Shown piece by piece: positions 1-11,969 of a stretch of 27,064 nucleotides of DNA; position 1 is the stretch's first letter; each line of letters starts with the position of its first letter. The stretch is from positions 1-27,064 of IMG/VR virus record IMGVR_UViG_3300032320_001532, one strand, 5' to 3'. This DNA comes from a virus. Taxonomy: Duplodnaviria; Caudoviricetes. Both the position numbers and the translations under genes were made by a program. The notes under the pieces are model-generated. The model did no database searches. It was not told the origin of the DNA and saw only the letters and a program-made list of their open reading frames with translations.

Positions 1-558
1 GTTGAATAACGTATCGTCAAATACAGTCTTATACATACTTACTTTACGATCCGGATCTGGTTGGATCAAGTTTTCGTAAAACATGTGAATATGAAAGTCT
101 GTGGCAAAGTAGTTGTGATCAAAAGCATGGTAGAAACTTTTTTCTGCATGCCTTACCCAAGGTTTATCTCCAACCAATCGTCCTAAAAAGTCTTGCGGAT
201 CATAACTGCCAGCATGCCATAAGCCATGTGTTGTTACTGGGATGCCTAGTAACTCACTCATGTACTTTAAGTTTATAATGCCCGGATGCCAAGCGTCAGT
301 AAAAATAAAGTGGTCGCCGGGACAAACGGATCCGCTACAAAATAGACGGCCCATTTGCTCAACTTGACTAGACTTGTATATATTGGTGCCACCAAAATTA
401 AGAAAAGCACCAGGAGTAGTGGCTGTAGGAATATCCTCAGGGCCAGCGATAATTTGAACATCATAGCCTTTCTTTTGTAAAAGTGCCGGTAGGTGGGTTT
501 TCCACTGCGCTGTATAGCGTGTTTCTACCGGCTCAAGGTCTACTAAGTAGACAGTCAT
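1..558 (-). CDS. Glycosyltransferase (GT-B type), N-terminal part; runs off the left edge; absent from the supplied ORF track
   Basis: Manual translation from ATG at 558 (ATGA overlap with the stop at 555-557) is open to position 1: MTVYLVDLEPVETRYTAQWKTHLP...GAFLNFGGTNIYKSSQ...FIFTDAWHPG...HGLWHAGSYDPQDFLGR...YFATDFH. This resembles the N-terminal domain of phage GT-B glycosyltransferases; the C-terminal donor-binding domain is outside the window. Confidence 0.7.
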   Translation of the reverse strand, partial: MTVYLVDLEPVETRYTAQWKTHLPALLQKKGYDVQIIAGPEDIPTATTPGAFLNFGGTNIYKSSQVEQMGRLFCSGSVCPGDHFIFTDAWHPGIINLKYMSELLGIPVTTHGLWHAGSYDPQDFLGRLVGDKPWVRHAEKSFYHAFDHNYFATDFHIHMFYENLIQPDPDRKVSMYKTVFDDTLFN

Positions 559-785
559 TGACGACCGTTCCTGTAGTTGTTATTGTACCCGTTGTTATTA
601 CGGGGACGATTTTCAAATCGTCTGTCGTTGTTATAACGACGAGGACGCTTAGACGCCTCGTATGCCTGCCAAGTTTTACTTTGGCGGTTATACAAGTCTG
701 CCTCATTGTAAGGCAGAAGGTTGAATCTGCAAAAATCTAGCAGATTGTCAAGATCGTCAAAAATTTGAACGACTTCTTTTTTCAT
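555..785 (-). CDS. Small hypothetical protein with N/R-rich low-complexity tail
   Basis: AAGGA SD upstream; coupled to the downstream GT gene; start is either 788 or 785. Confidence 0.75.
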   Translation of the reverse strand: MKKEVVQIFDDLDNLLDFCRFNLLPYNEADLYNRQSKTWQAYEASKRPRRYNNDRRFENRPRNNNGYNNNYRNGRQ

Positions 786-796
786 CATTGTTTCCT

Positions 797-1192
797 TTAG
801 TATTTGATGAATGAACCATTTTCTCCGTCTTCGGAGACCTCAATCCAAATCTCTCGATTTGGGTACTTACTGCTAATGATGTCATATAATTCATCTGACA
901 TCATTTCGCAACTTTTATAGTCAAGGCTTATAGTGGCACCTTGACCATTATACAGCGACTCGAGCCATCGTTTGAACTGGATGAACTCAATGTCCCTGTC
1001 ATTGTGTTGCACACTGATCCACACCCTGAAATGAAAAATGTGGCGATGGGGATAACCCAAAAACGATACGTCATATTCGTCTCCTGTTGCTAACGCAGGA
1101 TCCGTTAGTGCCGCAGGATACTTATGAATGCCTTCTTTGCGGAAAGTCACCCAGATCATTTTGTTAGGTCGAATGTCTTGTTTGATAATCAT
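797..1192 (-). CDS. QueD/6-pyruvoyl-tetrahydropterin synthase-like T-fold protein
   Basis: Metal-ligand-like pattern GIH...YPHRHIFHFRV, SCE motif and C-terminal EVSEDGENG strand fit phage QueD-like proteins. The start was moved to ATG 1192 (ATGA overlap with the upstream gene). Confidence 0.65.
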   Translation of the reverse strand: MIIKQDIRPNKMIWVTFRKEGIHKYPAALTDPALATGDEYDVSFLGYPHRHIFHFRVWISVQHNDRDIEFIQFKRWLESLYNGQGATISLDYKSCEMMSDELYDIISSKYPNREIWIEVSEDGENGSFIKY

Positions 1193-1728
1193 GTTGGTGT
1201 ATCTTGAGTATACTGATCCCAATGAGTGTACTTGTCCATACTCATTAGTTCATGTAATTGATGTGTCCACACGCCTGGATTTGTAGCACCCCAAGTTCGG
1301 TCATCCAGTTTAAGTGTGGCATTATAATTGAGTTGATTAATGTAAGGTAGTTTAACACTAATCATGGGGACAAAGCGAGGATATTCGTTATATGCGGATT
1401 CCAATACACCTTCGATGTGTTCAACACCAAAATCTAAAGTAACCCAGTAGCCTGCTTTTAGACAGCCTATAATAACTTCATCCCATGCTCGATATTCTTC
1501 TTGACTGATCGATTTAGGATTAAAACTCTGACTGGTGCCAAAGTAAATGTGTCGAATACGTTTAGATTCATCCAAGAGTGCTTGGGTGTCATCTGCCTTA
1601 CGTAAAATTTCTTCAAGCGGAGGAGTGCCCACTACAAATAGTGTAAACATACCATGACAAATAGTATGCTCGACTTCATAACCTGTAAAGTAAACGACGT
1701 CTTGTCGTTCTTCAGTGTTTAGTCCCAT
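1189..1728 (-). CDS. Hypothetical protein inside the base-modification operon
   Basis: 179 aa ORF overlapping both neighbours; motifs GYEVEHT, TLFVVG, HIYFG, KLDD, NPGVW; no family assigned. Confidence 0.8.
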   Translation of the reverse strand: MGLNTEERQDVVYFTGYEVEHTICHGMFTLFVVGTPPLEEILRKADDTQALLDESKRIRHIYFGTSQSFNPKSISQEEYRAWDEVIIGCLKAGYWVTLDFGVEHIEGVLESAYNEYPRFVPMISVKLPYINQLNYNATLKLDDRTWGATNPGVWTHQLHELMSMDKYTHWDQYTQDTPT

Positions 1729-2612
1729 TTAATATAACCTCTGCTGTAGCCATTTGGACGATCCACACCATCCGCAAATGCTTGTTGCCATTCTGTATTA
1801 CGATTATAACCTTTAGTCCAAAAATTGTCAACAACTAAATCGCCATTCTCTATCCAAATAGCCGCATCCTTCATGCAATCGTAAAATCTATCTGTTCGAG
1901 GACTTGGAAAAACCATAGTACAGGCTTTCCAAAGTAAATTACTAAAATCTGTAGTCACAGTTTTTTGACTGCCAAATACAATTAGTGCTTCGTTGTTTAC
2001 TATTGATTTATCAAAAACATCTGTTCGACTGCTTAGATCTATAATTACATCAAATGTTCCTGTATAAGAATTGGAAAGATTATCTCCCCATAACTCTTTA
2101 TTACTATTACCAACTACAGTAATATCAAAGTCCAATCGATTTAATCGGATTGTATTATAGGCCACCCATGCTAAGAATCCAGAACCTAATATTAGTAACT
2201 TTTTGCCTTCTCCACTTCTTTTATAGATATCAGAGATTGATTGTTGTACTACATTGATTCCGCAAGCCACCGGCTCTAAGATATATTTTGGATCTGCTTC
2301 TGGAACTTTTACATATTCGAATTCTCGAACATTATATATGTCTGCGTATGCCGGTTCTCCACGAGTAGCAACATAATCGCCTATAGAGACATCTTTAATA
2401 TTTGCACCAACAGCAATTACCTGTCCTAGTCCTTCATGACCTTGCATGTGAAGTGGCAATGGTCCAAAGTTTCCTTGCATCATATCAATGTCGCTACGAC
2501 AAACACCTGTCATAACAGCACGGACACTGATCTCGGTTTCTTGGAATGCAGGAACATCATATGTTACTTCTTCAAAGTAACCTTGCCCATTAGTTTGTAA
2601 ACAGCGTGTCAT
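1719..2612 (-). CDS. Zn-dependent medium-chain dehydrogenase (GroES-like ADH / sugar-alcohol dehydrogenase family)
   Basis: GVCRSD and GHEGLGQV catalytic-Zn motifs, EP motif, ILGSG Rossmann loop; no four-Cys structural-Zn lobe. The start was moved to ATG 2612 (ATGA overlap). Confidence 0.85.
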   Translation of the reverse strand: MTRCLQTNGQGYFEEVTYDVPAFQETEISVRAVMTGVCRSDIDMMQGNFGPLPLHMQGHEGLGQVIAVGANIKDVSIGDYVATRGEPAYADIYNVREFEYVKVPEADPKYILEPVACGINVVQQSISDIYKRSGEGKKLLILGSGFLAWVAYNTIRLNRLDFDITVVGNSNKELWGDNLSNSYTGTFDVIIDLSSRTDVFDKSIVNNEALIVFGSQKTVTTDFSNLLWKACTMVFPSPRTDRFYDCMKDAAIWIENGDLVVDNFWTKGYNRNTEWQQAFADGVDRPNGYSRGYIKWD

Positions 2613-3487
2613 AGATTTTCTATTCTTTCGTGAATCCAATAATCGTATTCTAATTGTTGTTGCCAAAATTTATCATTATCTACATTGGCAACAGCATCTG
2701 CAATCATTCTTTGATATGCATCTTCAGGGCATAGACCTAATTCAAAGACTTCACAGAAGCCTTCTTTTAAAATAAATTCAATTTTACGAGCATCTAGATT
2801 ATTACTACGCCAATCTGCTTGTAAATTCCACTTGCTACCAAACTCAATGTAACAAAAATCGTCTACATCATATATTCCATCGGATTTAACAATGCCATAG
2901 TCTGTGGTAGTTAAGTCGCTTAATTCCCATTCTCTAAGAGAACCTTGATCAGTCATAGATTCATTCTTCCAATTGGGATTTAATGCAATATATAGACTTA
3001 GCAAGTGTGGCATAAGATCTCTACTAACTCCACCGAATGCTAATTTTTTAGTAGTAAACCAAGTTCCAGGATTTGGAACACGATCCTTGTTAATCCACAT
3101 AAGTTCTACATTAGAGGATTTGTCTGCAAGTGTTTTTAATTCTTCAATATTACTACGCCACATATTGTTCTTAACCATCATGAAGCGTGTATTTTTAAAA
3201 GTGTGACAAAGGGTGGCCCAATTCTCTGCCTTAGCAACTCCAGGTTTTTCAATAAACACAATTCTACTAAATGGAGCAACCTTTGCGGCTAATTCAAAGT
3301 GTGTAAAATTTGGTGTACAAATGTGTACAGTATCAAAAAATTCATGAACTAAAATAGCCGCATCTATGCTAGGCATATCTGCACCTCGACTAATATCGCT
3401 GTCGACAGTAACTACTTCGTGACCTAAATTAGTAAGGACAGTTTTATATAACTGTCCTATACCCATTCCTACTATTAAACTTTTCAT
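2609..3487 (-). CDS. Gfo/Idh/MocA-family NAD(P)-dependent oxidoreductase
   Basis: IVGMGIG Rossmann start, ICTPNFTH, VFIEKP, GGVSRDLMPH (GG..D...H catalytic motif). Confidence 0.88.
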   Translation of the reverse strand: MKSLIVGMGIGQLYKTVLTNLGHEVVTVDSDISRGADMPSIDAAILVHEFFDTVHICTPNFTHFELAAKVAPFSRIVFIEKPGVAKAENWATLCHTFKNTRFMMVKNNMWRSNIEELKTLADKSSNVELMWINKDRVPNPGTWFTTKKLAFGGVSRDLMPHLLSLYIALNPNWKNESMTDQGSLREWELSDLTTTDYGIVKSDGIYDVDDFCYIEFGSKWNLQADWRSNNLDARKIEFILKEGFCEVFELGLCPEDAYQRMIADAVANVDNDKFWQQQLEYDYWIHERIENL

Positions 3488-3744
3488 CTATATGTGGGAA
3501 GTTTGTTAATACATTGAATGTCTGCACCAGACTCTTTGCTGGCAAATGTATGTAATTGATAATCGGCGGAATTTACACAGTTATCGTAACCGATAAATTT
3601 ATCTGATAGACCGATTGTATTTCCCGTTTTTGCAACTTTGATTACAATATAATAATCATTAACACCGACAGTGTCTTTTGCCGTGACCTGTGCCGCAAGA
3701 AATCCCAATAGTCCTGAAATTACGAATAATATGCCTAGTTTCAT
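3484..3744 (-). CDS. Small exported or membrane-anchored hypothetical protein
   Basis: Hydrophobic N-terminal signal-like segment, two Cys; ATGA overlaps on both sides. Confidence 0.7.
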   Translation of the reverse strand: MKLGILFVISGLLGFLAAQVTAKDTVGVNDYYIVIKVAKTGNTIGLSDKFIGYDNCVNSADYQLHTFASKESGADIQCINKLPTYR

Positions 3745-5288
3745 TTGATGCCTTCTTCAAGTTTGTCAAGTTTTGCTATTTCATCATCGGTAAATTCTTC
3801 ACCGTGTTCTAATTGTACACTCTCTTCTTCGACTTCGTCAAATAGTTTGGCAAATTGAGTACTAGCATTAACCGTTTTCTTACCTACAGCACCCCTAGTA
3901 CCGGGAATAGCCATCCAAAATTTACTAAAACTGTCAATAACTGCATCAGCAGTACCTCTATCATTAGCACTAAAAATGGCATCTACTACATCTTTAAAAT
4001 ATAGTCTGTCAAACTTTTCTTGAACTAACATAGTTGGACATAGTCCTGCATCATATTGACGATTGGCTTCTTGTACTGCGTTAAGATGCATCCAAACATT
4101 ATGACCCATTAGAATTGCATAACTAAAACTATCCCAAGATGTCTTACCTTCCTTACCAATTTTGTTCAAATCTCCAGGTGCATATATACATACGTCTTTA
4201 ATTTGAACACCATCTATGATTGGACTATTATCGAAATTTTTAAAATGTCCATCTTGCATTACTGCATCTCTGAACAATCTAGTATCGCCAGCATATTTTT
4301 TATCGTCGATGCTAGGCAACATTCTATAAACCCATTTAGTTCGGTCTTGAGTTTCTGTTTGAACATATACTTGTCCATTAGCAGTAGCCAAGAATGGACT
4401 GGCACAGTCAAACGATATTGTAAAGTTAGGATTGTGATATTTGCGTACAGCACGTTGAATGTCTGTTAATAAACAAGCCCATTCTAATTTACTTGTACCT
4501 AAGAAGTGCATCCAATCTTGATGACCCTGTTCTAACAAACCATCAAATCGTAATGCCACTAGCCGTTTTAAAACTAGATGTACATCACACATATTTTGGC
4601 CACCCATGGCCCAACCATTGAATGCACGGTCACCGTATACTTTTGGATCGCAGTATTTCTTCATACGGTCATACCAATCATCGGCATCAGTATGATTTTC
4701 ACCTTGAAGAACATTTAAGAACTTACAGTTACCATTACGATTGTTTACAAACCAATCATTATTAATGTAAGTTCCTTGAACTGCTTCTGCGTATGTAGTA
4801 ATGCCTGTGGCTTTTTGACCAGCGGGACTACGAGCCACCCAGGCAGGAATATCAAGGCACATTCCATAATCCATAAGTGCATCCATCCACTTAAGAACCT
4901 GTTCACGTTTCTTTTGTGCTTTAGGACAGTTAGGATTTTTCCAATCGCCTTCCCATACACCTTTACCAATCTGGAAGCCACCTGAATCACCTAACACCCA
5001 ACTTGTGCTACGATCTCTATTACGAAACATATCTTCGCTGTGATCTACTTTGTTTAAATCTAAGTTAGCATGTCCAGCACTATACAAACAGTGATCGTAA
5101 TAAAATGCACCTTTTTCAGGTTCTAAGTAGTTTAGACTTTCTACTCCATTTTTAAAACTAGCAGGTATTCTTGCCGGGTCAACATAGTTCCCATAACGTT
5201 GTTTACCGATAAAGGTACTATAGAAACCACTTGTTGCTGGTAAAAAATATGCGTAGTCGTTCTGTGTTGCTGTTAGGTTTTTATTCAT
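3741..5288 (-). CDS. tRNA-guanine transglycosylase-fold protein, probably a DpdA-type DNA 7-deazaguanine transglycosylase
   Basis: TGT motifs in the canonical order: DSGGFQ, MCLDIP, VLQG, AMGG, HFLG, FDCASP, GHN. The start was moved to ATG 5288 (TAATG overlap). A DNA substrate is inferred from context only. Confidence 0.85.
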   Translation of the reverse strand: MNKNLTATQNDYAYFLPATSGFYSTFIGKQRYGNYVDPARIPASFKNGVESLNYLEPEKGAFYYDHCLYSAGHANLDLNKVDHSEDMFRNRDRSTSWVLGDSGGFQIGKGVWEGDWKNPNCPKAQKKREQVLKWMDALMDYGMCLDIPAWVARSPAGQKATGITTYAEAVQGTYINNDWFVNNRNGNCKFLNVLQGENHTDADDWYDRMKKYCDPKVYGDRAFNGWAMGGQNMCDVHLVLKRLVALRFDGLLEQGHQDWMHFLGTSKLEWACLLTDIQRAVRKYHNPNFTISFDCASPFLATANGQVYVQTETQDRTKWVYRMLPSIDDKKYAGDTRLFRDAVMQDGHFKNFDNSPIIDGVQIKDVCIYAPGDLNKIGKEGKTSWDSFSYAILMGHNVWMHLNAVQEANRQYDAGLCPTMLVQEKFDRLYFKDVVDAIFSANDRGTADAVIDSFSKFWMAIPGTRGAVGKKTVNASTQFAKLFDEVEEESVQLEHGEEFTDDEIAKLDKLEEGIK

Positions 5289-5551
5289 TAGAGCCATCCA
5301 CCTGCTCGTGCAATGCCTATTATTCCAACTAAAATCCAAAAAGCATTTAGTAGCGTATAAGCCTTATCGTTCTTAAGTGTAGCACAATACGTTAAGAGTA
5401 CAGCATCTATAGTATTAAAGATCCAAACAAACATAAACGGACTTGCTGGACCTAACCACGATACTAGGGTAAAACTAATAATACGCATAATAACCCCAAT
5501 CATTTCCATTTGGGGTATATGCGACTTAATATAGTCTAAAATAAAATTCAT
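5288..5551 (-). CDS. Small membrane protein with about three TM helices (SemiSWEET/PnuC-half-like size)
   Basis: 87 aa, three hydrophobic segments; resembles 9083..9376. Confidence 0.7.
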   Translation of the reverse strand: MNFILDYIKSHIPQMEMIGVIMRIISFTLVSWLGPASPFMFVWIFNTIDAVLLTYCATLKNDKAYTLLNAFWILVGIIGIARAGGWL

Positions 5552-5553
5552 AA

Positions 5554-6288
5554 TTACTTGCTCTGTGCTGGTAAGATGTAATCATATACAGCAACACCGC
5601 TGTCAACAGTAATTTGCATAGCACCTGCATCTGCAATCTTCATAGTAACTTTACCATCAAGATTTAAAATGCTCTGTACTTGTGCAACAGGCCAAGACCA
5701 TGTGTGCTTTAACTTGCCGCCAACATCGTGTTGGAAAACAAATGAACCTGCGTGTGTACTTGCATCTCCAAAGAAGAATACAAGATTGTTGTCTTCTGTA
5801 CGAACTTGAAAAACAGTTTCTTCACTGTGTGCCGCACTCTGTAATTTCAAACGACTAATAGCCGCAACACTTGGTTCGAACTCGACTTCCCAACTAGCAC
5901 CTTTGAACTTAACTGATTTTAATTTTTCATTGATAAGTTCTGCGGCCATAAAACGATAATCGTTTTGGAAATCGCCTGCTTGGTTTTCAAAGTGTAAACC
6001 TACTGGAACATCTGCACCATTGCGGTTTGCTTTGACAACATCAATCTTAGCGTTCTCTTTATATTCTGGATTCTTCAAGTGAAGATTTAACTTGTCTAAG
6101 TTTGGCATACCAAATGTGCCGTCAAATTCTGCCACAGGTGAATGTGCAGTAGCAGTTACAATTACACTACGATCTTCTGCCATAGATTCGATAGTTGTTG
6201 AATCTTTAGCACCGCTGATCTTAACCAATGGCAAAAAGCCTAGGCTGTGTGTATGTGCTACGATATCTGTTAAAATGTCCTTAATCAT
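5554..6288 (-). CDS. DNA polymerase sliding clamp (T4 gp45/PCNA-like)
   Basis: 244 aa, beta-rich, ending YDYILPAQ; directly downstream of DNA polymerase; AAGGAG SD. The call rests on size, context and general pattern. Confidence 0.65.
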   Translation of the reverse strand: MIKDILTDIVAHTHSLGFLPLVKISGAKDSTTIESMAEDRSVIVTATAHSPVAEFDGTFGMPNLDKLNLHLKNPEYKENAKIDVVKANRNGADVPVGLHFENQAGDFQNDYRFMAAELINEKLKSVKFKGASWEVEFEPSVAAISRLKLQSAAHSEETVFQVRTEDNNLVFFFGDASTHAGSFVFQHDVGGKLKHTWSWPVAQVQSILNLDGKVTMKIADAGAMQITVDSGVAVYDYILPAQSK

Positions 6289-6308: not shown

Positions 6309-6337
6309 ATTATATTTAGGTTTTTGTTAAAAGTCAA
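6309..6337 (-). promoter_or_regulatory. Sigma70-type promoter for the clamp and modification operon
   Basis: TTGACT (6337-6332), 17 bp spacer, TATAAT (6314-6309); also overlaps CTAAATA, a late-like element. Confidence 0.85.
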
Positions 6338-9746: not shown

Positions 9747-11969
9747 TTAAGCAGTTGGGGGTGTGTTAGACGCTGCCGCCGCTTGATTTTGCCCTGGAGC
9801 CGCCTTTGCTTTAGCCTGCTGTAGTTTGTTTAACTTGCCTAATACTGTTTCTAAACGTTTCTGAACTTCTACAGGTAAACCTTTAACTACTTCTGGGTTT
9901 TTACCAAACTCTTCAAGAACTTTTAGATGTTTTTGTAATTCAGCCAAGTCAGCAGGATCCATTTCTAGATCTCCGCCTTTGATCCAATCCATAAACTTAC
10001 TGATACCAAATCCAGCAGCCGCAGTAGATAGAATAGCCACACCTGCGGCTATTCTTGGATTTCTCATAGCCGCACCAGCAACCTTGCCGCCTACTTTGTT
10101 TAATACGCCCTTGGCTTTATCTAACCAACTGGCCTTTCCAGGTTCTGGTGCTGGCGCTGGTGCAGGTGTTGGTGTTTTAGGTGCTGGATTACCAGGAGTA
10201 TTACCTAAGTAGTCTGGTCTAATTGGATTGCCTTTGGAATCCACTGGAGCCTTGCCAAAGTCTTTGGGGACATCAACACTGCCGGTAACACTGCGTTTTG
10301 GTTTTGTATCTGGTGCTGAATCTGGATAGAATTTACCGTTAACAAATTTTTCGTCTAATTTTGCAGACTCATCGATAAATTGTTTCATAATCGACATCTG
10401 CTCAGACTCAGAAAACACTTTAATGTTTGCCATAACAAATGAACGTAGTTCATCTTCTGTCATAGATTCTAAATTTTCTACAGTAATAGACTCTGTAATT
10501 TTATATTTGGTCATTAACGCTTCGATAGCAGTTAATGATTGTGTTAACTTACTGCGAGCAATAACATTTTTACCGTCTGCTAGAAGTTTTTCTAATTCTG
10601 GAGTAATTTTTCCAGTTTCAGGTAGTCCTGCTAATTTTTCAAATGCCTTAATGCCTGCAACAGTTTTTGGTCCCATACGTCCATCAATAGGACCTGGATC
10701 AACACCTAATGCTTTAAGTTGTTCTTGAACCTTTTGTACTTTTGGATCAGCAACTCCAGGTTTTTTATCATTAGGTTTTGTTGGATCTGTTGGATTTGTT
10801 GGATCTGCTGGCTTTTCGTCTGAACTAAATTGTGCTGGTAGGTCTAATGCTTGTTTAGTTAGTGTTTGGATTTCAGGATCGTCTTTAAAATCTGTTCCTA
10901 AATCTGCGGCCAGTCTTTGTAATTCTTTATATTCGTCTGCGGTCAATGCTTCAGACAATGTTGTACCTTCGGCAATACGTTGGATACGATTCATTAACTC
11001 ACTCATGCTTTCAGTTTTAGGAGCCGTTTTGGGCACAGCCGCTTTAGACTCTTTTGCTTTAGCAAGTAATTCTTTTATTCTTTTTAATTTTGCTTCTTTG
11101 TCGCCACTTGTGGCTACAGTAGATTGTGCGCCTGTACCGCCGCCCGATGTTGCTGGAGCAGCCGCAGGTTTTTCTACACCATCTTTTTCTGCTGTGGCCA
11201 TAGCAGTCTTGGCTGTTTCTAGTTCTTTGGCCATTTCTGGATCTTTGCCTATGCCATCTTTTTCTGCTGTATCCAATAGTGCTTTTAATTCGTCATAGAC
11301 TTGCTGTACTTCAGGTGCTAATTTTGCACCAGGACTATCTACACCAACTACTCTTTCTTCGATACCTTGATCAATAACTTCGTCTTGGAATTCCTTTAAT
11401 AGACTTTCAAAAATTGAACTTTCGAAAGGCTTGTTAGGAAGTTTAAGGCCAATACCGCTGGATTGACTGAGACTACTACCGCTTTTTACAGCAGATACTG
11501 TGGAATTTAATTTTGTCACTAGATCTTTTAATTTTGGCAGTGTATCTGTTTTAAATTTTTCAACTTTTTGTTTAGTAATAGCACCAGTACTTGCATTTTT
11601 AACATCTGTATCGTATTGACCTTTATCATCGCCACGGAACATACGTCCTAAACCAGTTGATGTTTTTGCGTTTTGTGGAACTAAACCTAGATCTGCAAGT
11701 TCTTTATCTGCACTAGATGATGCTGTTGCGGCAATACTATATCCTTGATTGCCCATGCCAGTTGGCATACTTTGCTTACGAACAAAATAACCGCTAATGG
11801 GATCATACAAACCAGGAAGTTTGTGTTTCCATGCTAGATCGTTTAAAATATTTGCACGACCTTGTTCGTCTTTTTCTTTGCCTTGCACGGCGGCTTCAAC
11901 GTCCTGTAATGTAATTGCTTCAGATAGAACTACATTATCTAGTTTGTTTAGAATTGATCTAATATCCAT
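9747..11969 (-). CDS. Large mosaic protein with a peptidoglycan-binding (PG_binding_1-like) domain; putative virion or ejected protein
   Basis: VQKVQEQLKALGVDPGPIDGRMGPKTVAGIKAFEKLAGLPETG (about 10600-10740); Pro/Ala linkers; hydrophobic Gly/Ala helix near the C-terminus. Confidence 0.8.
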   Translation of the reverse strand: MDIRSILNKLDNVVLSEAITLQDVEAAVQGKEKDEQGRANILNDLAWKHKLPGLYDPISGYFVRKQSMPTGMGNQGYSIAATASSSADKELADLGLVPQNAKTSTGLGRMFRGDDKGQYDTDVKNASTGAITKQKVEKFKTDTLPKLKDLVTKLNSTVSAVKSGSSLSQSSGIGLKLPNKPFESSIFESLLKEFQDEVIDQGIEERVVGVDSPGAKLAPEVQQVYDELKALLDTAEKDGIGKDPEMAKELETAKTAMATAEKDGVEKPAAAPATSGGGTGAQSTVATSGDKEAKLKRIKELLAKAKESKAAVPKTAPKTESMSELMNRIQRIAEGTTLSEALTADEYKELQRLAADLGTDFKDDPEIQTLTKQALDLPAQFSSDEKPADPTNPTDPTKPNDKKPGVADPKVQKVQEQLKALGVDPGPIDGRMGPKTVAGIKAFEKLAGLPETGKITPELEKLLADGKNVIARSKLTQSLTAIEALMTKYKITESITVENLESMTEDELRSFVMANIKVFSESEQMSIMKQFIDESAKLDEKFVNGKFYPDSAPDTKPKRSVTGSVDVPKDFGKAPVDSKGNPIRPDYLGNTPGNPAPKTPTPAPAPAPEPGKASWLDKAKGVLNKVGGKVAGAAMRNPRIAAGVAILSTAAAGFGISKFMDWIKGGDLEMDPADLAELQKHLKVLEEFGKNPEVVKGLPVEVQKRLETVLGKLNKLQQAKAKAAPGQNQAAAASNTPPTA

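Follow-up and report, generated by a model that had tools for sequence, protein, structure and literature searches.

Organisation of the operon

The window analysed here, which stems from a giant phage, is the whole of the 27-kb viral contig IMGVR_UViG_3300032320_001532 (27,064 nucleotides), on which open reading frame (ORF) calls and library scans placed every main gene on the minus strand. It holds an operon that combines a DpdA-type DNA-guanine transglycosylase (dpdA; 3741..5288) with DpdL (dpdL; 797..1192), a conserved protein of 179 residues (1189..1728), and a glycosyltransferase (GT; 1..558). A DNA deazaguanine pathway encoded by this operon is well supported and, judging from its gene content, the DNA of this phage likely bears a sugar-decorated purine. 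Because the source DNA is a 27-kb contig, folE, queD, and queE were checked in relatives. Metagenome relatives were collected with the 515-residue transglycosylase gene, namely the best 80 of at least 600 confirmed viral-contig stretches, indicating that the family of this gene is abundant in viral contigs; downstream genes were counted in the 39 loci whose flank reached 5 kb or more. A second set of 80 metagenome loci was anchored on the GT. As these metagenome loci are kin, cultured phages weigh more, the closest ones by the 515-residue gene (13 records) being the Pseudomonas jumbo phages PA5oct, Paride, and their kin (33% identity), Vibrio phage 2.275.O, and Sinorhizobium phage Phosso.

The first gene of the operon encodes a 244-residue protein (5554..6288; phrog_12062, function unassigned) that is likely a sliding clamp. 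Indeed, the gene following the polymerase gene in phage Phosso is annotated as such, and proteins visibly similar to the 244-residue protein match the Phosso clamp (E ~1e-32 to 1e-41). It is followed by an accessory hydrophobic ORF of 87 residues (5288..5551; a cluster with four members among 84 sequences), dpdA, an accessory ORF of 86 residues with a hydrophobic N-terminus (3484..3744; present in 6 of 84 sequences), the accessory genes coding for a Gfo/Idh/MocA oxidoreductase (2609..3487; 292 residues; PF01408, E 4e-6) and a zinc-dependent medium-chain dehydrogenase/reductase (MDR; 1719..2612; 297 residues; PF08240, E 3e-11), the gene for the 179-residue protein, dpdL, a common but not constant ORF of 77 residues (555..788; cluster found in 39 of 84 sequences), and the GT gene, which is cut by the contig end and of which the N-terminal 186 of about 357 residues are left. 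Seven of the nine junctions between the clamp and GT genes are overlaps, the other two being gaps of 2 and 8 nt. An earlier, sequence-only reading of this DNA had proposed one operon with the named genes in this order, which is borne out, except that the three small ORFs were missing from its list.

That reading had also placed all genes under one promoter. A predicted sigma-70-type site (TTGACT-17-TATAAT; 6309..6337, minus strand; 11/12 consensus match) was found upstream of the clamp gene, and 56 of 69 relatives had a site matching in 11 or more of the 12 positions no further than 160 nt from the start of the clamp gene, versus none of 222 segments inside polymerase genes. A single promoter is called into question by a further predicted site (1803..1831, minus strand; 12/12) within the MDR gene, 103 nt ahead of the start of the 179-residue protein. 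An internal site of at least 10/12 was present in 16 of 21 loci that include the oxidoreductase pair versus 2 of 41 that do not, a conservation that may partly follow from the protein, since the site overlies codons for a conserved D...YN stretch. The window contains 28 promoter-like sites in total, which is the chance level (23.6 ± 4.6 in shuffles).

The transglycosylase and the predicted base

The 515-residue protein, of the long PA5oct type, gave no direct Pfam, PHROG, or PDB sequence match. Its earlier assignment as a TGT-fold transglycosylase of a DNA pathway is upheld by several lines of evidence. Firstly, D101-SGGFQ, D146, G230, H261-x-LG (G264), and D294 were invariant in 18 transglycosylase sequences and Q195 was kept in at least 90%; these residues presumably correspond to the DSGGFQ, second Asp, QG, HxLG, and catalytic Asp of tRNA-guanine transglycosylases (TGT). 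Secondly, the nearest profile to the long DpdA was phage DpdA2 (ACP17 and BUDD; prob 94.5, E 8e-8), through which the link to the TGT model runs, as one of six DpdA2 proteins matches PF01702 (E 0.0055). Thirdly, the protein is 33% identical to QCG76197 of PA5oct, which is listed as DpdA3 in Data S1 of Cui 2023 (PMC10516641), alongside FolE, QueD, QueE, and DpdL, without QueC. Fourthly, its tail word FAKLFD resembles the FNKLFEF of the polymerase encoded in the window. Of the complete DpdA tails, 43 of 79 had the motif FxxLF[DEN], as did 73 of 81 polymerase tails, compared with 2 among 1548 other proteins; LFEF-like words close many of the other tails. This suggests that the long DpdA binds the clamp via a polymerase-type tail motif, which favours an action on DNA. 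Lastly, the DNA of PA5oct resists five restriction enzymes at G-containing sites, from which a modified G was inferred by the authors, and is sensed by END nucleases (PMC12191111); no measured mass was found for the modified base, though the supplements or a later version of that article could hold one.

Membership of the 515-residue protein in the phiST-type DpdA3 subfamily was considered and rejected, as the profile match of the long DpdA to that type (prob 13.7, E 0.002) falls behind that to DpdA2, despite the listing of the PA5oct homologue as DpdA3 (PMC10516641, Data S1). In Vibrio phage 2.275.O (L083:14905-21931), the same long DpdA family is found beside genes for QueF, YhhQ, QueC, an amidotransferase, and FolE, so that this family likely accepts different bases.

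The 131-residue protein, read as QueD-like before, turned out to be DpdL. DpdL is defined by the motif LxxxHRHxF in place of the CxxxHGH of QueD and has been proposed as a 7-carboxy-7-deazaguanine decarboxylase, the activity of which could not be demonstrated (Cui 2023, PMC10516641). The protein of the window reads LGYPHRHIF and is 56% identical to DpdL of PA5oct and 34% to that of phiST. LxxxHRHxF was kept in 54 of 54 distinct relatives and CxxxHGH in none of them, whereby an identity as QueD was rejected. Among the downstream genes of the relatives, folE was retrieved in 34 and queE in 29 of the 39 loci, and QueD is present in PA5oct and ACP17. For QueC, nothing over the cut-off was found in five out of five cultured GT-positive genomes (Paride, Phosso, ACP17, BUDD, and BCSR5). 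One partial QueC-like match over the cut-off, in genome G001, belongs to a stand-alone PP-loop protein encoded some 70 kb away from the deazaguanine cluster (L113:534-1172), and the QueC matches of G006 derive from a mixed metagenome-assembled genome. The presence of DpdL, together with FolE and QueE in relatives and no QueC over the cut-off in the five cultured genomes, points to plain 7-deazaguanine as the predicted base, replacing the earlier suggestion of preQ0, preQ1, G+, or 7-amido-7-deazaguanine (ADG). In the DNA of Cellulophaga phage phiST, 2'-deoxy-7-deazaguanosine (dDG) has been measured (Cui 2023, PMC10516641). The DpdA/DpdL core is a known, predicted system that is partly in print already.

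The glycosyltransferase and the proposed pathway

As the GT of the window is incomplete, it was analysed through its orthologue in L001, the DpdA of which is 91% identical to that of the window. Structure prediction and comparison of this orthologue gave a GT-B fold of the GT4 type (predicted local distance difference test score, 82). E264 and E272 (Ex7E) as well as H115 were invariant in 12 diverse GT sequences, which we take to be the catalytic motif of a GT4-like retaining GT-B enzyme. The nearest solved structures act on small molecules and include pterin glucosyltransferases. The GT gene follows dpdL in 53 of 53 relatives with enough flank. Similarly, dpdL lies upstream in 60 of the 61 GT-anchored loci with at least 1 kb of flank, and, where the flanks are longer, the gene for the 179-residue protein is upstream in all 46 loci and dpdA in all 30. 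The exception, L174 (725-3689), has a short-chain-dehydrogenase-like gene in the usual place of dpdL and a PP-loop-like gene after the GT gene. Twenty-two phage records contained a GT match, all 17 of those with at least 80% coverage having DpdL too; with BUCT-ZZ01, added by a profile search, the GT is present in 18 of 28 DpdL records. The five partial matches came without a DpdL match in the same records. Within the deazaguanine cluster, the GT occurs in six cultured groups, namely the Wroclawviruses (Paride and PA5oct), Phosso, ACP17, BUDD, BCSR5, and BUCT-ZZ01, which represent two DpdA types. It was not found in the whole records of phiST, RHph_I1_18, Ahp1, Bakedbeans, and D479, nor in MA9V-3 by a profile search that detected positive controls alongside, nor in Vibrio phage 2.275.O, whose long DpdA accompanies QueC and QueF. 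A functional assignment of the GT to the deazaguanine pathway is thereby supported by its gene context. Of the earlier proposal that the GT decorates an inserted deazaguanine, the link with the pathway therefore stands, given this context across distant phage groups, and the sugar-bearing base itself is a prediction. A description of this GT4-like enzyme was not found in print, the main text of Cui 2023 (PMC10516641) containing no word that starts with 'glycosyl' or 'sugar', and no account of DNA with a glycosylated deazaguanine emerged from the literature searched, which covered few subscription papers.

The 179-residue protein, which accompanies the GT, is possibly a cluster-less relative of QueE with a partial barrel. 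An identity as the radical S-adenosylmethionine (SAM) enzyme QueE itself was rejected, as neither the CxxxCxxC iron-sulfur motif nor any conserved Cys is present.

Genes of a sugar type vary beside the constant GT and comprise a PIG-L-like protein, a second GT-B enzyme, and a uridine diphosphate (UDP)-sugar-dehydrogenase-like gene (29 of 39 loci). Between the GT gene and folE in L001-L080, genes were seen for a phosphoribosyltransferase (31/39), a cupin-like protein (33/39), and a HIT-like protein (18/39), these names and that of the dehydrogenase-like gene being drawn from sequence alone. In L091 (6797-7591) and L092 (6746-7606), DpdL forms a fusion with a PIG-L-like deacetylase domain, next to a PP-loop gene resembling 3'-phosphoadenosine 5'-phosphosulfate (PAPS) reductase, as in BUDD and BCSR5. 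In Synechococcus phage BUCT-ZZ01 (L111:3388-7545), dpdA2 and dpdL are flanked by two GT-B genes, a gene pair that is a candidate for a disaccharide mark. Outside a jumbo-phage context, L105 (5189-11174) and L104 (3675-8101) contain DpdL, a radical SAM gene, and the GT with QueE; L105, labelled Candidatus ainarchaeum, has QueD and FolE too, and no DpdA was recognised at its locus. Xanthomonas phage PhiXhv-12 (L089:5669-9755) carries a distant GT homologue with GlmS, PIG-L deacetylase, Gfo-like, and acyltransferase-like genes and no DpdL match, which possibly represents a separate amino-sugar modification system.

The proposed pathway would start with FolE, QueD, and QueE, which were seen in relatives and the established chemistry of which leads to 7-carboxy-7-deazaguanine; this compound would be decarboxylated by DpdL, as proposed by Cui 2023. 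The long DpdA, held by the clamp through its tail motif, would then exchange some G in new phage DNA for 7-deazaguanine, onto which the GT4-like enzyme would move a sugar from a nucleoside diphosphate (NDP)-sugar, producing an anti-restriction mark. The 179-residue protein might, speculatively, serve as the base-binding partner of the GT. As the GT goes together with decarboxylation, the sugar site favoured is the freed C7 in the major groove, either directly or via a hydroxyl handle, whereas N2, for which huimycin is a precedent, would be a second choice. Overall, we consider the chances evenly balanced that 7-deazaguanine enters the DNA behind the replication fork and is glycosylated afterwards.

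Alternatively, the DNA may contain plain dDG, as in phiST, or 2'-deoxy-7-carboxy-7-deazaguanosine (dCDG), with the GT acting on a pterin intermediate or on surplus free base. This explanation, unlikely but to be taken seriously, draws on dDG being the sole measured product of any DpdL system and having no hydroxyl, and on the small-molecule substrates of the nearest GT structures. However, phiST-type phages run the same pathway without the GT, the GT gene often adjoins dpdA directly, and the varied sugar-tailoring genes are hard to account for with a waste product. A different order of events, leading to the same end product, would have the GT act on the free deazaguanine base and the long DpdA insert the base already glycosylated. 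Indeed, the GT resembles small-molecule GT4 enzymes, GT-positive phages have a long DpdA (413-549 residues) whereas the short phiST type was seen in those DpdL phages without the GT that were examined, DpdA and DpdL of ACP17 alone yielded no dDG (Cui 2023, PMC10516641), and in huimycin a free deazapurine is glycosylated, as described in PMC7439116. Yet, Vibrio phage 2.275.O combines this long DpdA family with a preQ1 pathway and lacks the GT, so that this order appears quite improbable.

The Gfo/Idh/MocA and MDR oxidoreductases had been thought to make the donor sugar. The motifs GxGxG, EKP, and DxxPH of the former were present in 22 of 22 distinct relatives, and the catalytic-zinc motifs CxSD and GHE (Cys, His, and Glu ligands) of the latter in 21 of 21, the structural-zinc motif CxxCxxC occurring in none of these 21. 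Both genes are always paired and always immediately upstream of the gene for the 179-residue protein, even in Paride and PA5oct, where the locus is a separate one, and this ties the pair to the module. These intact catalytic motifs in all freshwater copies and this invariable pairing would suit the synthesis of an unusual NDP-sugar required by the GT. However, the pair was present in just 25 of 73 DpdA-anchored and 9 of 51 GT-anchored loci, and it was not found elsewhere on four out of four long contigs that lack it at the locus, these contigs being 33-46% complete. No GT residue tracked the pair (best p 0.0025 among 627 tests), the presence of which was unclustered on the GT tree (12 changes versus 11.9 when shuffled) and required seven changes on a quick DpdA tree. 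Furthermore, the full-length Paride homologues (L095:6140-7908) lack GxGxG, EKP, and the Cys/His zinc ligands. A role in donor synthesis is hence highly improbable, and this part of the earlier reading is not supported. Among solved structures, the Gfo protein came closest to DgpA (E 4.5e-8, with a small margin over other family members), presumably a glycoside 3-oxidase, which fits better with tailoring of the attached sugar. Most likely, the pair would oxidise and then re-reduce this sugar in roughly one third of the lineages, thereby tailoring it, and would be dispensable for the core mark.

Finally, a reading in which tRNA is the substrate of the transglycosylase, the GT takes part in the glycosylation of surfaces or proteins, and the genes are clustered by coincidence deserves almost no credence, as the inclusion of tRNA enzymes in the TGT fold and the many auxiliary genes of jumbo phages are outweighed by the polymerase-type tail motif of DpdA, its nearest profile being phage DpdA2, the restriction resistance of PA5oct DNA (PMC12191111), and the recurrence of the cluster across distant phage groups.

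Outside the operon, the window carries a family B polymerase gene and, between positions 9747 and 26398, genes coding for a peptidoglycan-binding protein, a ferritin-like (ferritin/Dps) protein, a cytidylyltransferase-like protein, a ClpA-like ATPase, peptide deformylase, and DnaJ.

Relation to known modification systems

To our knowledge, known sugar marks on phage DNA all sit on pyrimidines, as was also the case in the literature searched. If true, the two main hypermodification strategies would meet in a glycosylated deazaguanine, which would represent a novel base and bring with it a novel enzyme activity; in addition, it may account for the failure of DpdA and DpdL alone in Escherichia coli. 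The prediction is testable in the cultured Pseudomonas phages PA5oct and Paride, which encode homologues of every core gene. More broadly, and with somewhat less than even confidence, the data may point to a widespread phage family with a glycosylated purine, in which a clamp-tethered DpdA would insert 7-deazaguanine, a sugar would be added, possibly as a C7 C-glycoside, and lineage-specific tailoring would follow, through epimerisation by the Gfo/MDR pair, deacetylation by PIG-L-DpdL, or a second sugar in BUCT-ZZ01.

The addition of the GT and the 179-residue protein constitutes a new variant of the DpdA/DpdL system. As to the DpdL/DpdA3 system of phiST, this also comprises FolE, QueD, QueE, DpdL, and DpdA without QueC, its DpdL motif is intact, and Data S1 of PMC10516641 contains the PA5oct orthologues of the DpdA and DpdL of the window. 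It differs in its DpdA3 of 259 residues, the absence of both the GT and the 179-residue protein, and the replacement of all G, whereas the DpdA of the window has 515 residues, is nearer to DpdA2 by profile, and is accompanied by the GT4-like enzyme. Acidovorax phage ACP17 is alike in its gene order (queD, folE, the homologue of the 179-residue protein, dpdA2, GT, dpdL, and queE). Both ACP17 and Xanthomonas phage BUDD differ in their DpdA2 type and gave no Gfo/MDR match, PIG-L-like and PAPS-reductase-like genes taking the place of the pair in BUDD and BCSR5. The alpha-glucosyltransferase of T4 acts on hydroxymethylcytosine, a hydroxymethyl-pyrimidine, in contrast with the deazapurine without a hydroxyl predicted here. 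Lastly, as described in PMC7439116, a GT within a FolE/QueD/QueE cluster puts a sugar on N2 of a 7-deazapurine in huimycin and dapiramicin, a likeness by description rather than by comparison with HuiG; in that case, the product is a small molecule, QueC and methylation are needed, and DpdA is absent, whereas in the phage system the sugar would be borne by a base in DNA.

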